Below the pieces are notes generated by a model. The model searched no databases and had not been told where the DNA came from. It saw only the letters and a program-made list of their open reading frames with translations. The translations under genes and the position numbers were made by a program. DNA of 32,000 nt, taken from the NCBI GenBank assembly GCA_000503875.1, contig CP006913.1, positions 1,145,761 to 1,177,760 on the forward strand, written 5' to 3'. The DNA comes from Candidatus Saccharimonadota bacterium (lineage in GTDB: Bacteria > Patescibacteriota > Gracilibacteria > Absconditabacterales > Absconditicoccaceae). Shown here one piece after another: positions 3,271 to 25,659 of this stretch. Every line of letters starts with the position of its first letter. The first letter of the stretch is position 1.

Positions 3271-3654
3271 ATGAAAAACAAACTTTTTGTTATCGAATCG
3301 GGAATAATTTTAGGGCTAACAATTATTTACCTATTGTTTCCACAAAAAAATGTTCATATGTTTTTTATAGTTCCATTCCTGCTTTTTGGTTATGTATTTG
3401 GACAATCTTTGAGTCAGGAATATTATAATCCTATAGGAAATAAAATAACAAGTATCTTGATTATTTTTGGGTCAAGCGTACTCCTATCTGGGGTTGCTTA
3501 TCTTCTTCAACGAGCAATGTTTGTAAAAAGCCTTTTTTCAGGGTATTTACTTTTCCTAGCCTCTGTTGTATGTTTAATTATTGTGATAATGTTTCTCCTT
3601 GGCAAAAACATATCACTATTAAACCAAAGAATCTATCATAATGAATCACTATAA
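3271..3654 (+). CDS. integral membrane protein (127 aa, about 4 TM segments)
   Basis: This is a track ORF with four long hydrophobic stretches and no in-frame TGA. The overlapping ORF 3165..3428 is rejected. Confidence 0.6.
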   Translation: MKNKLFVIESGIILGLTIIYLLFPQKNVHMFFIVPFLLFGYVFGQSLSQEYYNPIGNKITSILIIFGSSVLLSGVAYLLQRAMFVKSLFSGYLLFLASVVCLIIVIMFLLGKNISLLNQRIYHNESL

Positions 3655-3666
3655 ATACATAAAAAA

Positions 3667-4005
3667 ATGAAAAATCTATTTTTTGCTGCAAGTATTCTAG
3701 TAGTACTGGCCTCTTGCAATCCAAAAGAAAAACGTGCTTTTATCCTTGGACAGGAGAGAGGAAATGATACAACAATCATTGCGTTGAAATTTAATATGCC
3801 GAATGCATTTATTGTTTCTGTATTCACAGAATCAAGATTGTCTCCTAGCATAGAAAAATTTCCAACAAATTCTACTTACCTTCCACCAGATAAAAAGGGA
3901 TTAACAGTTTATATTCCAACCACCAAAAGTGGAACAAGATTCTTGGTTATGGTTACTGATGTAAAAAATCAGAAAACAATAATGATAGAATCAAAAACAG
4001 AGTAA
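3667..4005 (+). CDS. putative lipoprotein (112 aa)
   Basis: This is a track ORF. The signal peptide has a lipobox (ILVVLASC), the gene starts 13 nt after the preceding gene, and a terminator lies downstream. Confidence 0.6.
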   Translation: MKNLFFAASILVVLASCNPKEKRAFILGQERGNDTTIIALKFNMPNAFIVSVFTESRLSPSIEKFPTNSTYLPPDKKGLTVYIPTTKSGTRFLVMVTDVKNQKTIMIESKTE

Positions 4006-4156: not shown

Positions 4157-4215
4157 TTAGAAGGAATTATATAATAATAAGAATGTCAATATTTATATTC
4201 TACTCTTATTTAAAA

Positions 4216-5616
4216 ATGGCTGATTTGCTTAGTTATGTTTCCAAAAATTTTCTTAGATCAGAAAAATGACAAGAAGGTTTATCTATAATAAAAAAAGACA
4301 TTTTGTTAGAAGATAAAATGAAGAGATTATATACTCTTTTGAAAATAGATTTACATTGTGGAGTGAAAGACATAGAAGATATGCTTGTCAGGTGTAATGA
4401 AGAAATAAAAGTTCTGAAAATAGCTAAAGAAAAACTTCAAGAATGATACAATAGTAATATGCAACCAATTATACCAAAATATGAAGAAGTGAGAGATCTT
4501 TTATCAGATTACAGAGTTCTTCTTAATTTTCTTTGAGAATTAAAAGGTGGTTTGTGAAAAACTTTTTTGGATCATGAAAAAATTTGAAAATTTCAGGAAA
4601 TATATAGTACTTTAATTAAAAGATCAAAGGAATTAGAAGCTTTTTTTGAAAAATGGGAAAATTTAACAGTAACCAATAATGCAAAAGAAGTGATTTTATG
4701 AACTGATGAATGTGTTAAAAAAACATTAGAAAAAGAAAAATTAGTAAATATTCAGATTCCAAGATTGGCTAAAATATTAAAAGCTATAGACGAAAAATAC
4801 AAACCATTAAAATCAAATGCATATGTAAAAGACTTGTTGAAATATCTTTCTATTTGATATAATCAGAATATTGAAGTTGATTTTTATAAACAAGCAACCC
4901 AAGAAAAATGAGAAGGTTGAAGCGAAAACATATGTGAATTTAAACATAAAGAAAATATTATAGAAGAAATGTTTCTTTATCTGGAAGAGAATGGTATTAA
5001 GTCTGATGAAAAAGATGTTATAGTAGATAAAGGAAGTCCTACGCTCTATATTTATATCAAAGAAATGAATAAAACGGTTGTAATCTCAAATCGCTACGGA
5101 ATATGAACCCATATTTATAATGGAAAAGTGGATATCAAAGAAATAGAAAGCAATACAATCGACTATCTATTAGAAAAACATGACGGAAAAAGAATTAATT
5201 TTCTCTTGGAGTCTGGATGACTTGTTGCTTGGAAAAAAAGATTTGTTGATGCTTTATGAACTGAAAAAACATCAGATGAGACAATAGATGAAATAAAAAA
5301 TCATTGAGGAGAAAAACAAATAATCGAAGTTAAAAGACATATCCCTTTATTCGAGAGAGTAAGAGCCTTTGCGGCAGATAAGAAAAATATAAATCTAAAA
5401 ACAGTAGATTGCAATAAAACATATCAAGCAATTATTACTTCTATAAAACCATGAAGAGTATATGTTTGTATAGGATGAGAAGATAATCAGGCCTTTGGGT
5501 TTTTTAAATATATAAATCAAGAAGATATTAAACATTTTTGCCCATGAGATATTATAAAAGTTATTCCAGAAAGAATATATGAGAGATATCCTATTATCTT
5601 TAGAAAAACATCATAA
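4216..5616 (+). CDS. hypothetical protein (466 aa), K/E-rich
   Basis: ATG 4216 to TAA 5614-5616 is one frame with 16 in-frame TGA by my count and no TAA or TAG. It is absent from the standard-code track because of its TGA density. No family recognised. Confidence 0.65.
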
Positions 5617-8962: not shown

Positions 8963-9457
8963 ATGCGAGAATATATACAACCTATTGTATTCCAAATTAC
9001 GTCTACACGATCATATATAGTTATTACTATTTCAGAAAAACGAGGACGAACGCCACGAGTCGTAGAATATATTTTTGTTATTGGTGTTTTGTATCTTATA
9101 GCATTATTCTTACTCCACAAAGTCTATCGTTTTTTTGTCCATTCGGTTTTAAAACAAAAAGCGAATTTTTTCTTGGCATGCGATACTGTTTTATATCAAT
9201 TTCAATTAGAGAGTAACGAAAATCAACAGGATATATCTTGGATTAAAGAATTATTAAAAAAAGGATCGTATGAACAATCCTATAAATTATTTTTGGAAAA
9301 AACATCATTACTTCCTTTGGAAGCAGCAGAACACTTCAAAAGAAAACTTGAGAAAACTCACACCGCATACATCAATACATCCAAAAGAAAAACTTTTTGT
9401 GGGGTATTTTTGGTACTAGTTACTTTGGGCGTTTATAAGTTATTTCTAGAAAATTAA
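8963..9457 (+). CDS. hypothetical membrane protein (164 aa)
   Basis: This is a track ORF with two hydrophobic segments and no family recognised. Confidence 0.5.
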   Translation: MREYIQPIVFQITSTRSYIVITISEKRGRTPRVVEYIFVIGVLYLIALFLLHKVYRFFVHSVLKQKANFFLACDTVLYQFQLESNENQQDISWIKELLKKGSYEQSYKLFLEKTSLLPLEAAEHFKRKLEKTHTAYINTSKRKTFCGVFLVLVTLGVYKLFLEN

Positions 9458-9693
9458 TTTAATAAAATAGGTGGTCTTTTTTTGGATTGCTTTCTATCAA
9501 ATTGTTCTAATTCTTCAGAAATCTGATATTCATTATGATGCTTTTTTTCTGGTTTTTTTGTTCAAACTCCTATTGCACGTCAAAGCTCTTCAAGTCCCAT
9601 AGAAAGGCTGAGTCCTTTTCTTGTTCCAATAGTATTTGCCAGGCTTTCTTTTTGCTTTTCAGTTTGTTGGCCTAATTGATTATTTTCGCTCAT
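9454..9693 (-). CDS. small hypothetical protein (79 aa)
   Basis: On the minus strand, ATG (9691-9693) opens MSENNQLGQQTEKQKESLANTIGTRKGLSLSMGLEELGRAIGVG..., with two in-frame TGA, ending at TAA (9454-9456). Under standard code it would be only 37 aa. The call is weak. Confidence 0.35.
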
Positions 9694-9751
9694 AAGTGAA
9701 TAGGAGAGATAAAACTAATTCTTATATATCTTTTTTTATGAGAAAAACAAA

Positions 9752-9786
9752 CAAAAAAAAGAGTTCCAGTAAAAAACTGGAACTCT
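9752..9786 (-). terminator. rho-independent terminator of the T9SS-like operon
   Basis: A perfect 11-bp stem AGAGTTCCAGT / ACTGGAACTCT (9760-9770 / 9776-9786) has a 5-nt loop. On the minus strand it is followed by T8 (plus-strand A-run 9752-9759). It lies 28 nt after the stop of CDS 9814..11175. Confidence 0.8.
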
Positions 9787-9813
9787 TTAATCTATTATTT
9801 CTTCTGGTACTAG

Positions 9814-11175
9814 TTATTTACTACGCCAGATTTCTTGGCCATCTAATTTCAACCAAAGAACTTCTTTGTTTTCGTATTCGTTCTTCTTCCAAAAGATTGC
9901 ATAGCGTTTTTTGTCTGCACGAAGTAATGCAATAAAAGGCATACTTCTTTCATCTTCAGGAAGACATCCCTTTTTAATGATTTTAGCCTGTTTGGTTAAG
10001 GCACTATCTAACTCGGCATAAACATAATCAATAACGAATTTATTAAGAGGAGATTCTCCTTCTTTTTCAATTACATCCATGCGGATGTTTTCATTATCTA
10101 TACATTTAAAACGATTCTTAAAAAGAGGAACACTTGTCCAATATCTTTGGTATGCACCAAGTTGAATTTCTCCCCTGAAAGGAACAAGTTCTAATTTTTC
10201 TAATTCAATTAAAAGTTGTTCTCTAGCGGTGATTGTATCAATAGGTGTAGGTATAACTTGTCTCGTGAGCGTATCCAATGGAATACTATCCGATTTAGGA
10301 ATTGTATCCAATACAGGAACACTGTCCAGTTGTATTGAATCAAGTTTCGGAATAAATACAGGTTTTGTTAAGCTGTAAATGTCGTATCCACCTGATCCAC
10401 CAGGACGATCAGATGCAAAATAATATAGGGAGTCAGTTTGTTTCCTAACATCTATAGTATTGCATCCAGAGATGTTAATAGGATAAGGAAGCTTTTGTGG
10501 AGCTTGCCATTCCCCATCAACAAAGAGAGATCGATATACACAAAACCATCCATCCCGGTTGGAATTAAAATATAACTCTTTTCCGTTTGGAGTAATCCAA
10601 ACACCATTCTCATCAAATGATGAATTGAGTATCTCTACAGGAACTGGTTTTTCTTTTCCTGTTTGAAAGTAGATGTCATAATTACCACTACGATTGCTCG
10701 TAAAATAAAGAGAATCTCCTTTTGTAGCTATACTATTTTCATCATAATCGGAATTGATGTAAGGAACTTCTTGTAATGATTCTATGCTAATTCCTTGTTT
10801 CCTTGGAGCCATAAACAACTTTCCTTGGTCATTGAAATAACCTCGATAAAAAAACCAATACTTATTAGACATACCAACCAATGCTGAATTTGCATCGATA
10901 TTGGCACTGCCATAACTAAGTTTCTTTACCTTACCAAAGCTAGTATCTGCCATCTGTGTATAATACACCTTCTCTGTATATTCCAGAAGTCTATCTTCAC
11001 GATTATTTCTTCGTTTAGAAGTAAACAACAACATAGAATCTACAGGAAAAGGTGAATACTCTGCAGCAACCGAATTGATGTCTAGATTTTTCATAACCCA
11101 GGTTGAATCCGGTTGCTGAGCAAACCCCAAAAAAGAACAAGAAACAGAATAAATAATTATCAGTAGCTTTTTCAT
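9814..11175 (-). CDS. secreted PD40/TolB-like beta-propeller repeat protein with an uncharacterised C-terminal domain (453 aa)
   Basis: This is a track ORF with signal peptide ...SFLGFAQ. It has repeated PD40-type motifs (DSLYFTSNRSGNYDIYF, GKELYFNSNRDG, DSLYYFASDRPGGSGGYDIYS). I saw no OmpA-C motif. It stops at TAA. Confidence 0.7.
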   Translation of the reverse strand: MKKLLIIIYSVSCSFLGFAQQPDSTWVMKNLDINSVAAEYSPFPVDSMLLFTSKRRNNREDRLLEYTEKVYYTQMADTSFGKVKKLSYGSANIDANSALVGMSNKYWFFYRGYFNDQGKLFMAPRKQGISIESLQEVPYINSDYDENSIATKGDSLYFTSNRSGNYDIYFQTGKEKPVPVEILNSSFDENGVWITPNGKELYFNSNRDGWFCVYRSLFVDGEWQAPQKLPYPINISGCNTIDVRKQTDSLYYFASDRPGGSGGYDIYSLTKPVFIPKLDSIQLDSVPVLDTIPKSDSIPLDTLTRQVIPTPIDTITAREQLLIELEKLELVPFRGEIQLGAYQRYWTSVPLFKNRFKCIDNENIRMDVIEKEGESPLNKFVIDYVYAELDSALTKQAKIIKKGCLPEDERSMPFIALLRADKKRYAIFWKKNEYENKEVLWLKLDGQEIWRSK

Positions 11176-11181
11176 ACGCTA

Positions 11182-12063
11182 CTATTTAGAGGATTTCGAA
11201 TAAGGAAGCTTTAGCATTAAGACAACCTCATGTTTGGTAAACGAATAACCATATACGTCACCAAATGAATAAGAGCCGCAATACCCAAATGATATATTTT
11301 GGACATTAATTCCAAAACCACCTTTTATCGTATTTGCAGATGCATATCCTATGCTAAAAAGAATATCCTTATTGAGAATAAATTTTCCAGATACCCCATA
11401 TTGTACGCTACTGAAAGTTTGTGTGATAACATATCCACTTCCCTCCAAGAACAATACATTTTCCATCAAAGTAAATCTGTACATACCACTAGCAGCATAC
11501 GTAATATTAGTTTTGTTTTCAAAACTACTTACCATCCAATCAGTTTGACTGGGAAGTAAATTATACGCAGCGATACCAACATAGTATCTATCTACTTGAT
11601 TAAGTGCTAAACCGAAATTGGCATTAAACCAGTTTCCAGATTCGGCACCCTGGAGAATAGGATCATCTATATCGTGTACTTCTACACGATCTCTCATTAA
11701 TTTTAATTGGTTAAATCCGCCACTTAATCCAAACGAAAGTTTGGAACCACCAACAGGTACATGGTAAATAAAAGTAGCCTCAGCAGAAAGGTTTTGTAGT
11801 ACGCCACCTTCTTGCGAAGCAATCTTAAATCCACCTGCAACCCGTTGATTATTAAACGGTGAACTCCCCCAAAACATAAAGGATTTCGGATGATAATCAT
11901 AGGCACCCATTTCTGTTTGATAGAGCGTACCCAATTTTACCATTTCATTGTATCCGCCCAAACTTGGATTGGCTAAATATGGGTCATAGCCAGCCCCTAA
12001 TTGAGCGAACCCTTTCGTTGATATAAGCACTACCAACAAAAGGAAAATTCTGATTTTTTTCAT
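11182..12063 (-). CDS. PorP/SprF-family type IX secretion system membrane protein (293 aa)
   Basis: This is a track ORF with signal peptide ...STKGFAQ. Its size, alternating beta-strand-like composition and position directly downstream of a type-B CTD cargo gene fit the PorP/SprF family. It stops at TAG. Confidence 0.7.
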   Translation of the reverse strand: MKKIRIFLLLVVLISTKGFAQLGAGYDPYLANPSLGGYNEMVKLGTLYQTEMGAYDYHPKSFMFWGSSPFNNQRVAGGFKIASQEGGVLQNLSAEATFIYHVPVGGSKLSFGLSGGFNQLKLMRDRVEVHDIDDPILQGAESGNWFNANFGLALNQVDRYYVGIAAYNLLPSQTDWMVSSFENKTNITYAASGMYRFTLMENVLFLEGSGYVITQTFSSVQYGVSGKFILNKDILFSIGYASANTIKGGFGINVQNISFGYCGSYSFGDVYGYSFTKHEVVLMLKLPYSKSSK

Positions 12064-12082
12064 TGTAATATATTTTTGTTGG

Positions 12083-14641
12083 TTAGTACAATATAGTTAT
12101 TGTTTTCCAATATGGTTTTTCAGAACCATCTTGTTTAACAACTTTTAAGTATAAATAAACAAGTGATCCGGAAGCAACAAGATTACCATTTTTATTCTTG
12201 GCATCCCAAATGGTCTGAGAAGGATCTGTTGATGTAAAGATTTCGCCATCTTTGTTTTGGATAACAAGTACTATTGAGATAGCATTGTTACACAAAGAAC
12301 TAAAATCCAATACGTCATTATCTCCATCTCCATTTGGAGTAACAAGATTGGGAATAGCTACACCATTTCCTGCCATAATTTCGACAGAATCTGTTGTAAC
12401 ACAACCATTATTATCGGTTATTTGCACATAATGCCGACCAGCTGCCAAAGAATCCGCTTCCTGAGTTGTTTGAACGGGAATACCACTCCATAAGTAAGTA
12501 TGCGGTGGGGTAAAATGATCCACATATTGTACTAAGGCCGTACCATCCTCGCATTCAGGACAAGAAGTATTTTCAACTCTGAAATAAGTTCTAGGATGAT
12601 CAGGTTGTTCAATAATAACCTTTTCCATAGAGATACATCCATTATCATCGGTAACCGTTACATCATAAGACCCTGCCTTCAGTCTATCAATAATAAAACT
12701 GTTTGCGGGAGTTGTAATAGTAACCGTAGTATCAACACCTAAATAATTAGTTCCATCAAGTACTAATGTACTATTTGGTCCAGAGGTACCACCTGATACA
12801 TTCACTTCAACACTTCCTCGTCCATCATAGCATAGGCTATGGGTTGGGTTAATAGTTACTACCAAAGGGAGTGGTTGTACAAACGTAATAGTGGTATCAA
12901 AGTCACAAGTTCCATTTGAAATACGAACCAGATGATCACCAATAGGCATATCAACAAAGCTTGTAGTGTCATCAAATAACACATTTTGCGTAACTCCACC
13001 TACAGTAATATCTAGAGGAAATGCTTCCAAGTTATGAACTCTAATTATCCCTAATTCGTCGTTACACGAGATAGGAGTATTTACAAATTCAAATTGGAAA
13101 TTTGCTGGATTAGTAAGTGTCCAGGTTGTGTCAAAAACACAGCCAACACTGTCCTTAAGATGTAAGTCATAAATTCCACTACTAAGATTTGTTATAGCAT
13201 TGGTATTGTTATTCATAAGTACGCCATCTTTTTTCCAGACAAAAGAGTTTCCTCCATTACCTCCAATAACTGTTGTCGTGATACTAGCATTGGTGTATTC
13301 ATAACAACCTACAGGAACAACAACATCTGTTACATGAAGTCGGGCTGGTTCATTTATTGTTACCGCTGGCGGAATAAATGTACATCCGTTTTCATCAGTA
13401 ATTGTCAATGTATACGTTCCAGCAGCAAGTCCAGTAATAGAAGCAGTCGTTTGACCACTATCCCAAGAATAACTTAATTGACCAGTTCCTCCACTAAAAT
13501 TGGCAGTAATAGAGCCATCATTAGCTTGGAAACAAGTCAGATCTTTTTTAATTAGTTCTCCTTGAATAGGTGAATCAGGTTCCTTTATAATTACACTTTG
13601 ATCCAAAGCACATCCTGTAGAATCTTCTACATGAATAGTATATCTACCAGCAAATAAGTCAGTAACTGCTGCATTATTGCTAGAGAATCCACTCGGACCA
13701 GTAATTGTGTAAACAAAACCACTATAACTTCCTTCTGCAACTGCGTTAATACGTCCCGTATTATCTCCATAACACAAAATATTTCTTTGTGTGTAGGAAA
13801 TTTTTATTGGTGTAAGAACACTGTCAACCAACCAAGAATGTCGAAAACCTTTATTATCGTTTGTTACGACTTTAAAGATATTTCTCCCTGGATAAACTTC
13901 AGAAGAAAAACTTGCTACAGTATCTGCTACACTTGTTACATACAGTGGACCAGGAAGTAATTCAACAATAGTAACCGTGTCTTCCGGGAACTGCACTTGT
14001 GCAGGTAAATTAGCAGGAACTAAAATTGGTCTTACATCACTAATTGGCGCTGTTGCATCATAGCAAGCAGTAGAATCAATTTCGTAAGTCGTAGTAATTC
14101 CAGATAATTCATTAACAACAACAGTATCATTTCTTTGACAACCGTTTATATCAGTAAGCGTAATAAAATACGTTCCTGAATAAAGATTATCGAAAACATT
14201 AGCTGTTTGTGTTGTTTCAATAGTAGTAGTACTATCAATCAAATTATAGGTAAACCATCCGGTTCCACCTCCAGCTGTAATAGTAATCCTCCCATTTGGC
14301 AAAGGCCAATTGGAATTAGGAACTATCGCATATGCTGCAGTGATCGCAGGAGGATTATCCAGCGTATAAGTAAATGTTTCTGTTGCCAAAAGGGCATTAG
14401 TAACAGTTACGGAATACAAAGCAGCATCCAAACCAGAAGCGACTTTCCCTGAAAGAGTTGGTATAACTATACCATTTCGTTCCCATACATACGTATAAGG
14501 AGGATTAATCAATGTAGTAGTAACGGTTATTTCACCGTCCTTACCATCATGACACTTAATGTTTTCTGTGGCAGTGATCTGTGAAAAACCAGACAGCCAA
14601 AAAAACAAAAGTACCAACGTTACAATAATTTTTTGTCTCAT
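12083..14641 (-). CDS. SprB-repeat cell-surface protein with a T9SS type-B C-terminal sorting domain (gliding-motility-associated CTD), 852 aa
   Basis: This is a track ORF with signal peptide ...WLSGFSQ. It has repeated SprB-type modules (CHDGKDGEITVT, CYGDNTGRINAVAEG, CFQANDGSITANFSGGTG, CYDGRGSVEVNVSGGT). The C-terminus IPNLVTPNGDGDNDVLDF... is the hallmark of the CHU_C/type-B sorting domain. It stops at TAA. Confidence 0.85.
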   Translation of the reverse strand: MRQKIIVTLVLLFFWLSGFSQITATENIKCHDGKDGEITVTTTLINPPYTYVWERNGIVIPTLSGKVASGLDAALYSVTVTNALLATETFTYTLDNPPAITAAYAIVPNSNWPLPNGRITITAGGGTGWFTYNLIDSTTTIETTQTANVFDNLYSGTYFITLTDINGCQRNDTVVVNELSGITTTYEIDSTACYDATAPISDVRPILVPANLPAQVQFPEDTVTIVELLPGPLYVTSVADTVASFSSEVYPGRNIFKVVTNDNKGFRHSWLVDSVLTPIKISYTQRNILCYGDNTGRINAVAEGSYSGFVYTITGPSGFSSNNAAVTDLFAGRYTIHVEDSTGCALDQSVIIKEPDSPIQGELIKKDLTCFQANDGSITANFSGGTGQLSYSWDSGQTTASITGLAAGTYTLTITDENGCTFIPPAVTINEPARLHVTDVVVPVGCYEYTNASITTTVIGGNGGNSFVWKKDGVLMNNNTNAITNLSSGIYDLHLKDSVGCVFDTTWTLTNPANFQFEFVNTPISCNDELGIIRVHNLEAFPLDITVGGVTQNVLFDDTTSFVDMPIGDHLVRISNGTCDFDTTITFVQPLPLVVTINPTHSLCYDGRGSVEVNVSGGTSGPNSTLVLDGTNYLGVDTTVTITTPANSFIIDRLKAGSYDVTVTDDNGCISMEKVIIEQPDHPRTYFRVENTSCPECEDGTALVQYVDHFTPPHTYLWSGIPVQTTQEADSLAAGRHYVQITDNNGCVTTDSVEIMAGNGVAIPNLVTPNGDGDNDVLDFSSLCNNAISIVLVIQNKDGEIFTSTDPSQTIWDAKNKNGNLVASGSLVYLYLKVVKQDGSEKPYWKTITILY

Positions 14642-14811
14642 AAGTGGTTAATTTAATTTATATTTAATTTTTGTTTAATTTCTTTGTTAATTACCTAGCT
14701 AGATATACCCGAAAAATAAGCATTCCAGCCATCATAGTATATGTAGCTATTTGGCGATAAAAGTCAATACAATAATGAGAATAAATTATATAAAACAAGA
14801 AACAAATCAGA

Positions 14812-14839
14812 TTGATTTTTTTGTAAAATTTCCTATATT
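14812..14839 (+). promoter_or_regulatory. candidate sigma70-type promoter for dnaJ
   Basis: TTGATT (14812-14817), a 16-nt spacer, then TATATT (14834-14839), about 45 nt upstream of ATG 14884. This rests on pattern match only. Confidence 0.3.
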
Positions 14840-14883
14840 ATCACCTCGACAAAAAAAGTGCTATTTACTATTAACGTATAGAT

Positions 14884-15933
14884 ATGGATTTTGATGTAAA
14901 AAAGGATTATTACAAAATATTAGATATTCCAGAAACGGCCACAGCGGAAGACGCAAAGAAAGCATTCAAAAAGCTTGCAGTAAAACATCACCCAGACCGC
15001 TGATGAGATAAAGCAAAATTTCAAGAGATCAACGAAGCTTATCAAACCTTAGGAGATGAAAAAAAGAAAGCTCAATACGATGCTTATCGTAGTGGTGGCG
15101 GAGGACAAGGATGATATGATTTTGGCGGATTTGGCGGTTGATGACAAGGATGATTTGATTTCTGAGGAGTAGATCTCGGAGATATTTTTGGAAATATGTT
15201 TGGAGGTGGATTTGGAGGACAACAAACAAGAGCAGAATCATTTAGTGGAGAAGATATCAAAGTTGCTATAGAAATTACTTTTGAAGAATGATTTTTGGGA
15301 GTAACCAAAAAGGTCGCTTACAATAGAAAAATAAAAATGTCTGGTATTGATGAAAAAAATTGTAGCACTTGTAAAGGTCAATGAAGAGTTTCAAGAACAG
15401 TTCAAACACCTTTTGGAATGATGCAAACTCAAACTGTTTGTCCAGATTGTGGAGGTGTTGGTCACCAATATACCAAGGATGGAAAGACTATTAAATCTCC
15501 ATTTGAAAATCACAAAGAAACGATTGAAGTTAAAATTCCAGAAGGAATCGATGATGGCGTTTATATAAAATTTACTGGAAAAGGACACCAATGATTAAAT
15601 GGTTATGATGGTGATTTATATATCAAAATAAATATTCAGACTTCTCCTATATATGAAAGAAGATCAGATAATTTATATATCAAAGTTCCTGTAACCATTT
15701 TTGATCTTGTGCTTGGAGCAGAAAAACAAATCACTCATCCAGAAGGAAAACTAAAAGTAAAAATCCCAAAAGCTACTCAGGTAGGAGATATGGTCAAAAT
15801 ATCTGGAAAATGATTTGGTAAGTGATGAATCTTTGGTAAAAAATGAGATCTTTATCTGATTCCAAAAGTAGACATCCCAAAAAAATTAAGCAAAGAAGAA
15901 GAAAAATTGTGGAAAGAATTAGCTTCGATATAG
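14884..15933 (+). CDS. dnaJ: molecular chaperone DnaJ (349 aa)
   Basis: It has a J-domain ([35 protein letters not shown]), a G/F region ([42 protein letters not shown]) and zinc-finger motifs CSTCKGQG and CPDCGGVG. About 14 in-frame TGA all fall at Gly positions. It ends at TAG 15931-15933. It is absent from the + strand of the track because of these TGA. Confidence 0.92.
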
Positions 15934-16017: not shown

Positions 16018-16575
16018 ATGCTCATAACCATAACTTGAAAAGCTTGAAGCGGAAAATCTACTGCAGCTAAGGCACTTGCAGAGAGGCTTTGATACGAATA
16101 TATTTCTATATGAAGCATGAGAAGAATTGTTGCAGAGAAAATGTGATTAAATATTTTGGAATTTAATGAGCTTGGCGAACGCCCAGAAAATCAAAAAGAA
16201 TTTGATTTGAAATACGAAGAATATCAAAAAAGTTTAGATCCAACATCCAAAATTGTTTTGGAAAGTAGATTGTGATTTTTTTGTCAGCCAAAATCTTTTA
16301 AAATTTTTTTAACGGTTGATGAAGAATCTGCAGCAAAAAGAATATTTAATAATAAAAGATCTACTGATGATTATACATCTTGGGAAGAAGTTTTAGAAAA
16401 AACAAAAATAAGAGATAAAGAAGATGTAGAAAGATATAAAGAATTATATAATGTAGATTATAGTGATTTCAAAAATTATGATCTAATATTGGATACAACA
16501 ATTAAAAATGTTGATGAAACAGTCGACGAAATTATAGAGCCATTTAATAAATACAAGAAAAACCAGCAAAAATAA
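16018..16575 (+). CDS. cmk: archaeal-type cytidylate kinase family / AAA nucleotide kinase (185 aa)
   Basis: It opens MLITITGKAGSGKSTAAKALAERLGYEYISIG. Two glycines of the Walker A motif are TGA (16036-16038, 16045-16047). The overall layout resembles Cytidylate_kin2 proteins. It ends at TAA 16573-16575. Confidence 0.7.
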
Positions 16576-18180: not shown

Positions 18181-19614
18181 TTAAAATAGTATTTTCCAAA
18201 GTTGCCAAGAGTTTCCTTGCTGATACAAAGAGAAGCATTTTCCATTGGCTATGTTCTCAGACATTTGCTGTTCTCATAACCATATATATAAAGGTCTATT
18301 CAGATTTTTATAACTTTTTTCTAACATCTCGCATTTATAACTTCCATCATTTTCTCGCCGCTTAATCCATTCAGTGTGGTTTCGTTTATCTAATTCAGCC
18401 ATTCAAGGATTGATGTAATCTCTTTGACTCCAGCCCATAATCCAAGGAGTATAATTTTTGTGCGAATTTATAATTATGGCATTTTCTTCTGTTCTATTTT
18501 TGATGTTTTTTATCGCAGAAAATTCTTCTTTGCTAATTAAAGGTATTGCGTTGATGTTGATATGGACAATATAATTAAACCCTACAGCCAATCCAATTAT
18601 AGCAAAAATAAAAATTCAGAATTTTTTAATTTCCCATTTTTCACAAACAAATTTATATAGATTCCAAATTCCATAAGCAGCCAATATCACCACAAATATA
18701 TCAAAAAAAACAATCGCTCTATTGAAATTAACCATTCTCAAGACTAGTCGTATTGCTCAAATAATATATCAAATATCTATAATTCAAAACCTTTTTCTTA
18801 TGATTTTGTAAAAGAATCAAACCAAACTAAACAATAAAACAAATCGTTGAATCTTTATATATTCGGCAATCATAATAAAATCTCAACCAGTCTGACTTGC
18901 TACAATAGTTCAAGTTGCTTTGATCGCTTCCGACATAATCTGATGCCAAATTGGGATATACATTGCAAGTCAAATAACTCCAGCTAATCATCGAAATATA
19001 GTTTGTTTCCAAGGGATTTTTTTGTTTGTATATCGCTCCAAAATCCAAGATCAAAAAAGAAGCAATCATGTATATAACGCAGTATGTTTATGGAGTAAAA
19101 TAATAATCAAAAACAAAATAGATTGTCGCAATACTTTGTTTTTTTGTATAAAGATTAGGACTAGCAGCATAAGATTGACAGCAATAATCTGCTTAAAATA
19201 TCCTCGCCAAAATACCTGATAGCCGACAATTGACATCCAATACAGCCAAGCTCATATTACTCACATCCATTTGTTTTCTTTTTTCAATAACACAAAAATC
19301 AGAACTCATGGAAGGAGGTTGATTATTCATATTCATCGGGTTAGCCACCAATCAAAGTTCGCTCACATTTTGCCAAAAATTGCCATTATTGTTCCAAGTA
19401 ACGGTTCATGTCTCACCCACCCAGGAAGCAGAGAAAAATCAAAATTCCACAAAATCTTGGAATATTCTACAAAAATTCATTTGTACATTCCTGGGTCATA
19501 GCCTAGTGGAGTTTCATTTCCTACAAAGTATCGTAGTCTATACAGTCAGAATAAAATTCAGATCCATAATAGGATCCATGTTCAATATTTTTTTCAAAAA
19601 CCTCCTTTCTCCAT
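18181..19614 (-). CDS. polytopic integral membrane protein (477 aa), possibly GT-C/ArnT-like glycosyltransferase
   Basis: On the minus strand, ATG (19612-19614) to TAA (18181-18183) is 1,434 nt in one frame, with about 24 in-frame TGA and no TAA or TAG. Track ORF 18403..18591 is in this frame. The protein is dominated by hydrophobic helices. The functional guess is weak. Confidence 0.6.
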
Positions 19615-19709: not shown

Positions 19710-21152
19710 ATGAAGAAAACAACAGAAAAGGACTCTTTGGTTTCTCAGATCAAAGCGATTCCAAATCAAGTTAAAATTTTTGTTTTGGGATTGTTTGTGG
19801 TAGTTTTGGCTCTTGTTAGTGTTTTGCCTAACTTAAATTATAAATTCCTTCAAGGAAGCATTTTAAATATAAAAACAGAATCAAAAGTTAATGGTTATGG
19901 TTATTGATATGGTTATGAACCTCCATATGTTTTTGTAGATGATGATTGATATGGATATGGTTATCAAGTAGATGAAAACACTAAAAAATATATTAGAATT
20001 AGAAATATTGAATTTTATTTTGATAATATGTCTGATATATTAACTGTAAAAGTAATATATAGTCCAAGATATGAAGGCACTATGATTGTAGAACCATCTA
20101 TTTATCTTGTTGAGCCAGCACAAATAAATTATTGAACCACAAATCCATCATATATTGGGAAATGTTTGGTTTTGGAAAACAATGATATTTGTATTATGAA
20201 ACAACAATTTACTATAAATAGAACATTGCATGGAAATCAAATAAAAGTAACACCAGTATTTAAAACAAGAGTTACTGCAGTATCAAATAATGATCAAAGA
20301 GCTTTATGACAAATAATAATCGATAATGCCAGCACAAATACAACTTGTCAAACACCAGAAAACATATTAGCGTGTTCTTTGCATTTAACATCTTGTCCAA
20401 GTGAATGTAGACCAGCTCAATGTCAAACACCAGAAAATGTATTAGCGTGTTCTTTGGGGTTAGATTCTTGTCCACAAGAATGTATATATAATTGAAATAC
20501 TACTTTAACAGGGAATGTTTGTCAAACACCAGAAAATGTATTAGCATGTTCTTTGCATTTAGCATCTTGTCCACAAGAATGTAGACCAGCCCAATGTCAA
20601 ATACCAGAGAATGTATTAGCGTGTTCTTTAGGGTTAGATTCTTGTCCACAAGAATGTATATATGGAGCAACTTCAGGAAACACAACATCATACTGGACTA
20701 ACTGGCTCAATAGAGATGGTCCATCTGGAAACGGAGATTATGAAACATATGCTGATTTTATGCCAGTTCCTTGTAAAGATGGATATCAACCAATTGATGT
20801 AAAATTTATTCGTGCTGACGAAAGTGAAACAACACAAACTATTCATTTTTCATCGAAAGGTGGGTATTGTTTAAATAGTGAAAATTCAAAATGATGTGCA
20901 GATTATAAAGTGAAATTCTTTTGTGAAAAAACAGGAAGCAAACCAACGATTATTGAAAAGCCAAAAGAAACACCAAGAGTTATTGAACAACCAAAGGTTG
21001 TAGAAACACCGATAGTTATAGAAAAGCCAAGAACTGTAAAAGAAGCAATAACTATAGAAGCTAAACCAACACCAAAGACAAAAGAAACGATTGAAACTAA
21101 AACTACAGCAGAATCAACAATTTTAGATATTTTCAAAGATCTTTTAAAATAA
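19710..21152 (+). CDS. secreted or anchored Cys-rich repeat protein with a WxxW (mucin-2-type) domain (480 aa)
   Basis: ATG 19710 (MKKTTEKDS...) is followed by a TM/signal anchor. Track ORFs 19647.., 20553.. and 20910.. are all in frame 0 and are joined by TGA. Features in order are a GYGYGYGY tract, four CQTPENVLACSL-x-L-x-SCPxEC units, YWTNWLNRDGPSGNGDYE...GGYCLN...GCADYKVKFFC (WxxW pattern) and a PK/E/T-rich tail with repeats of the form [IV]IE[KQ]P-[KR]. Confidence 0.75.
20346..20663 (+). repeat. in-frame tandem repeat: two 174-nt super-units, each holding two Cys-rich sub-units (75 nt, then 69 nt within the 99-nt second half)
   Basis: 20346-20489 aligns with 20520-20663 with about a dozen mismatches over 144 nt by eye. 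TGTCAAACACCAGAAAA starts recur at 20346, 20421, 20520 and 20595. Confidence 0.85.
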
Positions 21153-23651: not shown

Positions 23652-24664
23652 TGTACTACCTTCGATACGAGTACCTTTCAGAAAGTTTCCCGAGATGTAA
23701 TGTCTTCAAAATACGTGATAACAAGGAACTCTTGCACTACACGATTCATGAAGATCTTTCTAATATTGTTCAACAATCCAGAGAATATCCCAAATACGAT
23801 CACTTTTTCTTGCTCGACGAAAGCAGATTTTCTTTTTTTAGATGCGATGTAAATCAACTTTTTGAGGAGGAAATCACTATTCATACGCTCAATGAACTCA
23901 CCAAAGAAAAAATTAGAGAGACTAAAGACGCTCATGGAATTTGATGAGAAGTTGTGATGAATTATGTCGATACGATATTCGTAGATGGCAAAGAAAAGAA
24001 ATTTCTTATTGGTCAAAAAGGTCAGATTTTCTTTAGATTATATATTATATTTATAGCAAAAACGAGTCTGAATTTGTTTGACTCGGTCTATGGAACAACA
24101 TTGGAAAAGAAAAATATAAATCTGATTCCTCAGTCATTATATACCTTACTATTTTTGAGAAACAATCTCAAGAAAGATAATTTTGTACTGCTGTATATTA
24201 CCGAGAGCTATGCAAAAGCAATCACCGTGAAAGACGGTTTCTATGCGGGAATTGACGTGTTAAACCTCGGTATGGGAGCACTCAAACAAATGTACAAAGA
24301 CAATGGCGTTGTCCAGTATCGATACAAAGAATACCAAGCAATAGAAGCAAACCCTCTTGCAAAAGAACTGGTAGTAGAAACTCTGGAATTTTATTCACAA
24401 CTCTTTTGCAAACGATTATTCGAAAAACATCTCGGCGGTATGGATATTATTGTTATTTCTCCTATCACCAAAAACGAGCATTTCATCGAAACCTTCAACA
24501 AAGAATATAGAAAAATGAGTAACAACTATATCGTTCCTTTCCATCATTCCAACTCTCTCAATTCTTTTGGTATAGAACGAGAACCAGAAAATATGGACAG
24601 CCTCGTCTTTGTAAATCAAGAAGAAAAGATTAGAAAATTGCTGTTGGGAGAGGAGAAAAATTAA
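23651..24664 (+). CDS. hypothetical protein (337 aa)
   Basis: ATG 23651 overlaps the topA stop by 1 nt. Track ORFs 23651..23944 and 23954..24664 share a frame and are joined by TGA-TGA (23942-23947). No family recognised. Confidence 0.6.
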
Positions 24665-25659
24665 TGTAAGTTTTCTTTTTCTACATAAGAAATAAAATTA
24701 TCTAAAGAAGTTTCCTTTAATAAATGTCTATCATTATTAATTATTCATTTAATCCGGTTATTGTCTTCAGTAAAATCAAGTCTCTCTTCAGGTAAATTAT
24801 GTTTATTGTTTTCTCTATCTGATAATTTTTTTGCATATCTTTTAAGGGTCATCAATAAGAATAGTCCCTCAAGATATTCTTTTGTAAAAGGAAAAGAACA
24901 ATGTTTTCTATATCAAGAAAAAAATCATTCAACGTTAATTCTTCAATTTCTAATAAGTTTAGCCATTCATAAACCAATAATTTCTCTACCACTAATGCCT
25001 TCTTCATCTATAAAATAAAGATGTTCATACTGATCAAATAATAAATTTCATGTGTGAGCATCAATCAAATCCAATCATAGATTGTTTTCTTTAGGGTCGA
25101 AAAGGATGTTAATTTTTTCTAAAATTTTTATTTGTTCTTCTGGGGAAAAAGTTTTTATTGCTTTTGAAATTCTTTTAATATGTTTAGATTTTACCTCTTC
25201 AAAATCCTCTTTTGATCTATCTTTTCTATATTGATTTGCTTGTCAAAGAATCTCTCATAGTTTATAATTTTTGTTAGGTCATTTGTATTGATGATATTCT
25301 ATTGAATTGGAAATTCGTTTATAAAGCAAATATTTTCATTCTCTTCCATAATAATCAGGAAGAATATTTTTTAATTTTTTTGAATTAGTGTCTATTCGTT
25401 TGGCTTTTTTTTCTGATTCACAGATTCTCAATTTATAGGTGTTTTCTCAATCAGTTATTTTAAAGACCTCTCAACTTTGAGCGCTTTCATGATATATTTT
25501 TTCCGCTTTGAGTAGTTTATTTTTATAGTTAATTATATTAGAAAATGGTTTTGCATAAAGGTCTTCTATAAGTTCGTTTTTTTCTTTTTTAAGAAAATCA
25601 TAATTTATTTTAGAAATCATATATTTAGTTTTATCTTTAATTTTTGAGAGAATTTCCAT
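24661..25659 (-). CDS. APH/choline-kinase-like phosphotransferase family protein (332 aa)
   Basis: On the minus strand, ATG (25657-25659, MEILSKIKDK...) to TAA (24661-24663) is 999 nt with many in-frame TGA. It has a LIDAHTGNLLF...YFIDEEG pattern resembling the HxDxxxxN catalytic loop plus the IDxE metal motif of the kinase-like fold. The track start at TTG 25716 sits inside the -35 box, so I moved the start. Confidence 0.55.

Follow-up and report, generated by a model that had tools for sequence, protein, structure and literature searches.

An old chromosomal operon for type-B cargo, PorP/SprF and PD40 proteins that remains free of UGA codons in code-25 bacteria of the candidate phyla radiation

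Introduction

Must a gene cluster devoid of in-frame TGA be a newcomer to a genome that reads UGA as glycine, and what place could proteins of a Bacteroidota secretion system have in such a cell? Both questions are raised by a cassette of three genes in a 32,000-nucleotide stretch of contig CP006913.1 (the whole stretch is called the window here). The window belongs to a code-25 genome from the candidate phyla radiation (CPR): with TAA and TAG as the only stop codons, dnaJ (14884-15933), topA, tyrS, secD, efp, tilS and many hypothetical genes are read as long open reading frames (ORFs), each with 1-24 in-frame TGA codons. The cassette encodes a SprB-repeat protein with a type-B C-terminal sorting domain (CTD), a PorP/SprF-family protein and a PD40 beta-propeller protein (genes 1, 2 and 3; the product of the last is called protein 3). 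To our knowledge, proteins of type IX secretion system (T9SS) families have been treated as confined to the Bacteroidota, or to the Fibrobacteres-Chlorobi-Bacteroidetes (FCB) group, and as requiring an outer membrane. The absence of a recoded codon is commonly taken as a sign of recent transfer, and an earlier note, made from the sequence alone, proposed either a recent horizontal acquisition from a code-11 Bacteroidota donor or a chimeric assembly join. We compared the locus with its counterparts in other genomes, which are denoted below by L numbers. After the label of its closest named relative (L009), the host is better called an Absconditabacteria-like, code-25 member of the CPR.

Absence of UGA codons from the operon

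The observations from which the question arises were borne out on re-examination. The three minus-strand genes lie back to back (gaps re-measured at 19 and 6 nt), contain 0 in-frame TGA across 1,598 codons and end in TAA, TAG (with a second TAG directly after it) and TAA. The flanking genes do use TGA as a glycine codon, with 14 in dnaJ, 16 in the 477 codons of 4183-5616 and one in the 426 codons of tyrS, where it is 1 of 36 Gly codons. At the TGA share of Gly codons in the window (28.7%), the probability that none of the 126 Gly codons of the operon is TGA is 3e-19. The operon terminator marks the exact end of the TGA-free block, with 2 TGA codons in the small gene that follows.

The same state was found in six further code-25 lineages drawn from NCBI, ENA, JGI and Logan assemblies. 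In the seven lineages together, 0 of 698 Gly codons of the operon are internal TGA, versus 740 of 1,816 (41%) in neighbouring genes (Fisher's test, P = 3.5e-129; per-lineage P(0) 4e-9 to 2e-40). The lone apparent in-frame TGA in an orthologue, in the SprB gene of L008, lies directly after a run of N and was discarded as an artefact. In the neighbouring genes, TGA alternates with GGN in 92 of 108 conserved Gly columns and makes up 47% of the codons in strictly conserved Gly columns, with synonymous variation in 96 of the 108. In the operon the proportion is the same: 60 of 69 strictly conserved Gly columns vary among GGN codons, none of them with a real TGA. The contrast is also seen between the window and L008, the closest pair in which operon and flanks have diverged together (synonymous divergence, dS, ~0.6-0.7): TGA status has switched in native genes at 24 of the 61 Gly sites that the two share, and in the operon at 0 of 54, though 19 of 53 GGN pairs of the operon differ.

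The earlier note had equated the TGA-free state with recent arrival and had expected old inheritance to be betrayed by TGA-Gly codons in orthologues. This equation fails, because the operon is old (see below) and yet TGA-free in all seven code-25 lineages, and the absence of TGA has therefore been maintained by selection. As judged from these codon patterns, the comparisons show that, within the code-25 lineages, purifying selection acts directly and codon-specifically against UGA in the three genes of the operon.

Ordinary translational selection, with very high expression (as of a major protein of the surface coat, for example) or a need for very accurate glycine insertion leading to the avoidance of a slower or slightly error-prone UGA, could be the cause of such a ban. 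Housekeeping genes of the window do have less TGA (17%) than hypothetical genes (41%), tyrS has the 1 in 36 given above, and rare non-glycine readings of UGA were reported from the proteomics of a BD1-5 bacterium (PMC4032931). The operon has no other codon bias of the housekeeping type, however: C-ending codons account for 0.209 of its two-fold codons, versus 0.291 in housekeeping genes, and it uses more of the rare G-ending codons than the flanks. In addition, topA and dnaJ of the sister lineages have 37-57% TGA, versus 0% in the operon, and the 47% TGA at conserved glycines of native genes indicates that decoding is accurate enough for DnaJ, TopA and TilS, so a general problem of UGA accuracy is unlikely. 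Weak codon selection would, moreover, rarely yield a complete ban in small, AT-rich symbiont genomes. We therefore regard translational selection of this kind as rather improbable.

A second explanation would place the cause in a particular stage of life, in that tRNA-Gly(UCA) might become limiting, or UGA-stalled ribosomes might be attacked, in a state such as host-free dispersal or starvation, so that messages with UGA would go untranslated at the very time when the attachment module has to be made. Such codon-gated expression would account for a ban that is specific to TGA, comes with no general codon optimization and has borders coinciding exactly with those of the operon, and the function is plausibly one needed ahead of host contact. 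There is no sign of a wider regulon, as no other long TGA-free gene was found in ~100 kb of code-25 sequence, and the small TGA-free ORFs at 3271-4005 are too short to judge. The probability of codon gating is low but appreciable.

Several further candidate causes were rejected. A strand or mutation bias is incompatible with the TGA-rich native minus-strand genes (24 of 43 Gly codons in 18181-19614 and 13 of 18 in 24661-25659). General codon optimization does not apply, as the C-ending share of the operon is close to that of the hypothetical genes (0.197), which have 41% TGA. A Shine-Dalgarno motif was found in no gene of the window and cannot distinguish the operon, and carriage by phages found no support in two IMG/VR scans, both empty. 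Independently of the operon, TGA usage shifts quickly between related genomes: TGA provides 29% of Gly codons in the window genome versus 46-56% in the same orthologous genes of the sister lineages L002, L005, L009 and L017, and 14 of 54 Gly codons in the dnaJ of the window versus 27-33 of 52-58 in the sisters.

Synteny and age of the cassette

The same dnaJ|tilS locus holds the cassette in at least seven code-25 lineages (the window, L002, L005, L008, L009, L016 and L017). It is flanked on one side by dnaJ, cmk and a gene for a 439-aa protein, and on the other by genes for a 161-aa protein, TilS, YceD and a PD-(D/E)XK protein, with no mobility genes adjoining it. Amino-acid identity to the PorP protein of the window was highest in L008 (89%), followed by L009, labelled Candidatus Absconditabacteria (77%), L002 (68%), L005 (67%), L017 (59%) and L016 (42%). 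Orthologues of gene 1 were 39-79% identical. The dS values between lineages ranged from 0.6 to 2.0, with a dN/dS of 0.10-0.35 overall (0.25-0.35 for gene 1 and 0.10-0.23 for gene 2).

The block had been suspected to be richer in GC than its surroundings, and it is (35-37% versus 32%). This is not a foreign signal: GC content at third codon positions (GC3) is alike in operon and flanks (0.236 versus 0.223 in the window; 0.205 versus 0.206 in L009), which implies that synonymous sites are fully ameliorated and that the extra GC is an effect of amino-acid composition. By these measures, the cassette is evidently an old resident chromosomal operon under purifying selection.

Neither of the two explanations put forward in the earlier note survives this comparison. 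An assembly or binning artefact, with a Bacteroidota fragment on a CPR contig, would account for the sharp change in TGA usage at both borders. However, the sequence is identical on two NCBI contigs (one of 1.18 Mb and one of 190 kb, the latter from a second assembly), the same junctions recur in independent assemblies of six other lineages, and GC3 and codon usage match those of the flanks. The synteny across so many independent assemblies led us to reject a chimera, to which we attach practically no probability. A recent acquisition from a code-11 Bacteroidota donor, with too little time for TGA gain, would be in keeping with the TGA-free codons and with nearest non-CPR relatives in the Bacteroidales. 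It is contradicted by synteny in seven code-25 lineages, orthologues only 42-89% identical and ameliorated GC3, by the synonymous saturation of the GGN codons (the 60 of 69 columns mentioned above), and by a best Bacteroidota identity of only 33-42%. A lack of time for TGA gain is thus rejected on the basis of dS, GC3 and Gly-codon turnover, and recent arrival is scarcely credible.

The cytidylate-kinase-like gene beside dnaJ (16018-16575 in the window) is only 29-32% identical to its counterparts in L005 (5491-6057) and L017 (2789-3352), versus 69-82% in other lineages, which suggests non-orthologous replacement at a conserved position. In the MAG L001/L010 (metagenome-assembled genome GCA_964424095.1), the third gene of the cassette (10900-12060, compared with 9800-11152 of L002) matches only residues 175-453, its N-terminal part being apparently gone. 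The same species from other samples (L002, L003) has an intact 450-aa third gene, so that the form in L001/L010 is due to faulty assembly or else, in one population, to a deletion or a pseudogene.

Origin of the cassette

In its ultimate sense, the code-11, Bacteroidota-type origin proposed in the earlier note holds, as the nearest non-CPR relatives are Bacteroidota metagenome-assembled genomes (MAGs) with the same three-gene cassette. When one genome per GTDB species was scanned, the nearest PorP relatives outside the CPR (37-38% identity) came from Bacteroidales and Paludibacteraceae MAGs. SprB/CHU_C, PorP and PD40 plus C-domain genes occur in the same order in L012-L015 and L029, the last being a non-CPR contig with Omp85 and DPP-IV neighbours and cassette proteins of 845, 321 and 458 aa. 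Full-length homologues of protein 3 were found only in the CPR (51-100% identity) and in the Bacteroidota, where those of the cassettes are homologous from end to end (33-42%). The Paludibacteraceae homologue (L015, 10942-12558) has a Lys/Glu-rich, low-complexity insertion of ~85 aa directly past the signal peptide, which all other members lack. In crude neighbor-joining (NJ) trees with few taxa, the CPR copies were monophyletic with respect to the Bacteroidales (100% bootstrap).

The cassette also occurs in a code-11 lineage of the CPR (L011, L019/L020 and L025/L026), with genes that have no in-frame TGA anywhere and a PorP identity of 59-66%. The AspRS of this lineage has its best named relatives in Patescibacteria, Falkowbacteria and Parcubacteria. 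The context of the cassette is conserved in these genomes and differs from that in the code-25 lineages (rlmH | cassette | mtnA-aldolase-PNP).

The junction between genes 2 and 3 connects the two sets of genomes. In the code-11 CPR (L011, L019), the PorP stop is a TGA that overlaps the start of gene 3 in an ATGA. The code-25 lineages L005, L009 and L016 keep this ATGA, and translation of their PorP continues past it for 4-6 codons until a TAA or TAG is reached. In the window (TAG TAG), L002, L008 and L017, new stops (TAG or TAA) have arisen 1-3 codons upstream of the ancestral TGA. As the overlap is common to the code-11 CPR and to three code-25 lineages, it records a code-11 origin. From the alignment of the PorP 3' ends, the TAG TAG of the window is best read as a substitute stop, which arose a short way upstream of where the ancestor had its ATGA overlap. 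The fossil ATGA supports an entry of the cassette into the code-25 clade from a code-11 background.

Recombination between lineages

The trees of the individual genes are in conflict. The PorP tree groups L009 with the window and L008 (100%), whereas the tree for the PD40 protein groups L009 with L002 and L005 (98%). In the right flank, L002 and L009 come out as sisters (dS 0.33), against a dS of 0.8-1.3 between them in the operon, dnaJ and the gene for the 439-aa protein. Gene 1 is a mosaic, in which identity to L002 and L009 is 76-92% over residues 101-600 and 35-58% at the ends. These three observations make it clear that alleles of the cassette move between lineages by frequent recombination. 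L016 (8182-11488) has ordinary flanks (dnaJ 86-94% identical to that of other lineages) and an extremely divergent cassette (PorP 40-45%, SprB ~40%, no precomputed Pfam match for PorP), which is TGA-free and has kept the ATGA junction; this cassette may be an allele imported from an unsampled lineage. A metagenome scan for the cassette added few lineages.

Could such exchange itself keep the operon free of TGA? If code-11 and code-25 CPR shared a pool of alleles, the ban would follow from continual replacement from code-11 CPR, or from selection for transferability to them, with the operon staying readable in both codes as a chromosomal counterpart of the code-11-compatible phages of these hosts. 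The code-11 clade (L011, L019, L025) lies among the code-25 lineages in the tree, at the PorP identities given above, the recombination between lineages is clear, with a very divergent allele set in the conserved flanks of L016, and TGA-free phages with backup stops provide a precedent (PMC10746230). However, the window and L008 co-diverge with no operon TGA gain, while 39% of native Gly sites have switched, from which it follows that an influx of code-11 alleles would not suffice, on its own, to keep TGA out of the operon. The replacement rate required would be far above what the divergence of the alleles allows, no code-11 allele closer than ~66% was found, and viral contigs (IMG/VR) contained no copies. 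A shared pool is thus an improbable cause, albeit one with some claim to attention.

Identity of the encoded proteins

The family assignments of the earlier note (type-B CTD cargo, PorP/SprF and PD40) hold in HMM searches. Gene 1 matches the Pfam models for the SprB repeat (3.6e-25) and CHU_C (PF13585; 6.6e-09, 36.2 bits versus a cut-off of 27, residues 762-838). Its score with NCBIfam TIGR04131 (26.3 bits) is under the cut-off of 35, so the CTD is divergent. The hydrophobic N-terminus, ending in SGFSQ|I, is conserved among orthologues by eye, and hydrophobic N-termini ending in GFSQ or GFAQ, putative signal peptides, are likewise recognizable, from the sequence, in all three proteins. The product of gene 1 is predicted to be a surface protein and a putative adhesin.

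Gene 2 matches PF11751 (PorP_SprF; 1.6e-34, 120.2 bits versus a cut-off of 22.3) and TIGR03519 (PorP family; 121.9 versus 90.55) over its full length (residues 1-283), and a PDB sequence search with the PorP protein gave no relatives. In the Bacteroidota, PorP/SprF is an outer-membrane beta-barrel that holds type-B cargo. The gene starts 19 nt downstream of gene 1, and this adjacency is kept in all relatives.

Gene 3 has a Pfam match to PD40 (1.9e-10). An AlphaFold2 (AF2) model of protein 3 (pLDDT 79) comprises a signal-peptide helix, a propeller (residues 27-270), a disordered linker (273-313) and a compact alpha/beta domain (317-451). The propeller has a Foldseek match to TolB (E ~1e-7), but TolB itself was rejected as an identity: the scores with the TolB models TIGR02800 (16.6 versus 343) and PRK01029 (19 versus 405) are far under cut-off, there is no TolB N-terminal domain, and only the propeller fold is alike. 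Partial matches to the PorE and CHU_0125 OmpA-like models were also far under their cut-offs. Outside its full-length family, protein 3 matches PorE-type TPR-PD40-OmpA_C proteins by the propeller alone, which is also the only part to align with the PorE model NF052230 (31.8 bits versus a cut-off of 600). With no OmpA_C and a different C-terminal domain, protein 3 is not PorE and can be at most a functional analogue of it.

When modelled alone with AF2 (pLDDT 87), the C-terminal domain of protein 3 had as its best PDB fold match the SPOR domain of DamX (2lfv; probability 0.97, E 0.056, TM 0.32-0.40 over 75 columns), which is a weak match, and the SPOR domain of CwlC appeared at rank 44 of the Foldseek list. 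By sequence, the domain had no Pfam match, and a PDB search gave chance-level results (E 1.9). As a weak lead from the model, the domain may be SPOR-like and bind peptidoglycan or the wall. No T9SS core genes were found within 10 kb of the cassette in any lineage.

Proteins of these families function in the outer membrane of cells with a T9SS, and all three ORFs are intact under code 11, the ATGA junction included. It could thus be imagined that they are made or used in a code-11, T9SS-bearing diderm, namely a Bacteroidota host or prey for which the episymbiont supplies its own docking receptor. Such a setting would account for the UGA ban as well as for the type of the proteins, and Absconditabacteria do co-vary with Bacteroidetes in some mats (PMC8406219). 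This explanation lacks a known mechanism for the delivery of genes or mRNA, no near-identical Bacteroidota copies exist among the homologues found (best 33-42%), and the known hosts of cultured or observed Absconditabacteria are Gammaproteobacteria (PMC8080830). We consider it most unlikely.

Organization of the operon and the rest of the window

The coordinates of the operon are given in Table 1. The strong terminator described in the earlier note is present, but at 9758-9788 rather than 9752-9786; it lies 26 nt past the last operon stop. The block had also been taken to begin at 9694, but positions 9694-9757 lie outside it and belong to the start of the small native ORF 9454-9693. The operon promoter is presumably located in the spacer between the operon and dnaJ, in which a scan for a sigma-70-like consensus found no site on the operon strand.

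Table 1. Features of the operon and its borders (positions in the window).
Feature	Position	Strand	Remarks
Intergenic spacer, divergent, operon / dnaJ	14642..14883		242 bp, AT-rich; presumed site of operon promoter
Gene 1, 852-aa SprB-repeat protein	12083..14641	-	0 TGA/68 Gly codons
Gene 1 type-B C-terminal sorting domain (CHU_C), residues 762-838	12128..12358	-	contains NLVTPNGDGDNDVLDF
Gene 2, 293-aa PorP/SprF-family protein	11182..12063	-	0 TGA/34 Gly codons
Tandem TAG TAG stop of gene 2	11179..11184	-	from alignment of PorP 3' ends
Gene 3, 453-aa PD40 protein	9814..11175	-	0 TGA/24 Gly codons
Gene 3 beta-propeller, residues 27-270	10366..11097	-	AF2 model and Foldseek
Gene 3 C-terminal domain, residues 317-451	9823..10227	-	AF2 and Foldseek; weakly SPOR-like
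Intrinsic terminator	9758..9788	-	13-bp stem with 5 GC pairs, 5-nt loop, then TTTTTTGTTTG

The sequence read from this genome comprised the 32-kb window and ~6.7 kb beyond it (~39 kb). ORF 9454-9693 (minus strand, ~79 aa), directly past the operon terminator, has two in-frame TGA codons and no Pfam match, and an ORF of 73-88 aa is called at this position in other lineages too. No Shine-Dalgarno-like motif lies within 20 nt of any gene start in the window, so that ribosomes in this genome apparently initiate in a Shine-Dalgarno-independent manner. There are no tRNA genes within the window. The adjoining small plus-strand genes 3271-3654 and 3667-4005 are also TGA-free (0 of 13 Gly codons, P ~0.01 at the TGA share of the window); one encodes a polytopic membrane protein and the other a protein with a lipoprotein-like LASC signal. 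TGA-rich genes lie on both sides of this pair, which a code-11 annotation of this genome also leaves intact. Among the long genes of the window, the one densest in TGA (18181-19614, minus strand) encodes a polytopic membrane protein with no Pfam match and has 24 in-frame TGA codons (56% of its Gly codons) and 21 Trp codons. Gene 19710-21152 (plus strand) encodes a secreted 480-aa protein with four Cys-rich repeats (CQTPENVLACSL..SCPxEC) and a Mucin2_WxxW domain, and a 599-aa protein with a Mucin2_WxxW domain is also encoded in L016.

Discussion

The operon described here combines two oddities, T9SS-type proteins in what is expected to be a single-membrane cell and a ban on UGA in a genome that uses this codon freely. 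The nearest parallels to the proteins are in the Bacteroidota. In Porphyromonas gingivalis, PorE, PorP and the type-B cargo PG1035 have been shown experimentally to form a complex, and in Flavobacterium johnsoniae SprF binds SprB (PMC9143113). Like these PorE-PorP-PG1035 and SprB-SprF systems, the cassette encodes a cargo, a PorP/SprF protein and a propeller protein, here with a putative wall-binding domain, side by side, and its cargo gene is followed by the PorP gene, as in the Bacteroidota. It differs from the P. gingivalis and F. johnsoniae systems in its UGA ban and in its CPR host, the studied relatives of which have one membrane and no lipid A; protein 3, unlike PorE, lacks TPR, CRD and OmpA_C and has the SPOR-like domain instead. 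The cassettes of L012-L015 and L029 have the same three-gene architecture and similar sizes but are found in genomes of diderms that use code 11, in the vicinity of Omp85 and further T9SS cargo, and have short spacers, or a different overlap in L029, where the CPR copies have the ATGA overlap. With TolB/Pal and SPOR proteins, the resemblance is limited to the propeller fold, for TolB, and to a C-domain nearest to DamX SPOR, with an E-value that is not significant.

The closest parallel to the ban is provided by the code-11-compatible phages of Gracilibacteria and Absconditabacteria, which have no in-frame TGA and a TGA stop with a close backup stop (PMC10746230). The PorP genes of L005, L009 and L016, in which the TGA is followed by TAA or TAG 4-6 codons on, have backup stops of the same type. 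Unlike those phages, the operon is chromosomal, syntenic and vertically resident, and it has no IMG/VR relatives. That a recoded bacterium maintains a UGA ban in an operon resident on its chromosome appears not to have been described before.

Vampirococcus, a member of the Absconditabacteria, has a single membrane and a fibrous coat (PMC8080830), and relatives are described as single-membrane organisms without lipid A (PMC8080830, PMC6851277). In a cell of this kind, Sec export alone puts proteins outside, so the anchoring half of the system could work without the translocon. Sec would export all three proteins across the single membrane, protein 3 would tie the complex to the cell wall, and the PorP-like protein would, by analogy with PorE-PorP-PG1035, bind protein 3 and hold the adhesin by its type-B CTD. 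The SprB-repeat adhesin would then join the fibrous surface for attachment to host or prey, with no T9SS translocon involved. We consider it somewhat probable that the cassette moved as a unit, long ago, from a code-11 donor of Bacteroidota type into the CPR, where, as a resident of the dnaJ-tilS locus, it would provide an adhesin, PorP and a PorE-like tether for translocon-free anchoring.

Several points weigh against this interpretation. Beta-barrels of the PorP/SprF type normally depend on an outer membrane and on the beta-barrel assembly machinery (BAM), which makes their folding and seating in a single-membrane cell a difficulty; the clade may have an unrecognized outer layer, or the barrel may be inserted into the outer membrane of a partner cell. 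A T9SS core may exist elsewhere in the genome, or the clade may have an unusual outer envelope. The SPOR-like assignment, with its Foldseek E of 0.056, is weak. In the NJ trees, bootstrap values for the placement of the code-11 CPR clade are only 39-53%, and the direction from Bacteroidota to CPR rests on the diversity of the family and the TGA-stop fossil rather than on a rooted broad phylogeny.

As to the cause of the ban, we tentatively favour the reading that translation of these genes has to remain possible in settings in which UGA is unreliably read as glycine, be it in a life stage limited for tRNA-Gly(UCA) or in a code-11 cell. It is possible, but doubtful, that both oddities have a single cause, namely decoding in a setting in which UGA is a stop or unreadable. 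The operon might be expressed in code-11 cells, or steadily exchanged with them (a T9SS-bearing host or code-11 CPR), or it might be translated at a stage of life with the UGA-reading tRNA switched off; if this were true, codon choice would be a functional gate in a recoded bacterium. The remainder of our expectation falls on a cause not yet thought of.

Full-text searches of open-access papers and bioRxiv found no literature linking CPR, Patescibacteria, Gracilibacteria or Absconditabacteria with T9SS, PorP or SprB. The cassette is a known kind of module in what would be an unexpected type of envelope. That two CPR lineages have conserved it under selection, as a cargo/PorP/PorE-like unit, suggests that the system's anchoring half is reusable without the translocon or, alternatively, that some CPR have an unrecognized envelope. 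A TGA-free state that is old and selectively maintained warns against the use of recoded-codon absence as a clock, and it shows that, in an organism that reads UGA as glycine, UGA is not equivalent to GGN for every gene. The ATGA junction and its independent TAG/TAA repairs provide a natural record of an imported gene adapting to a changed set of stop codons, and the putative adhesin may be a determinant of attachment to the host in a clade of uncultured episymbionts.

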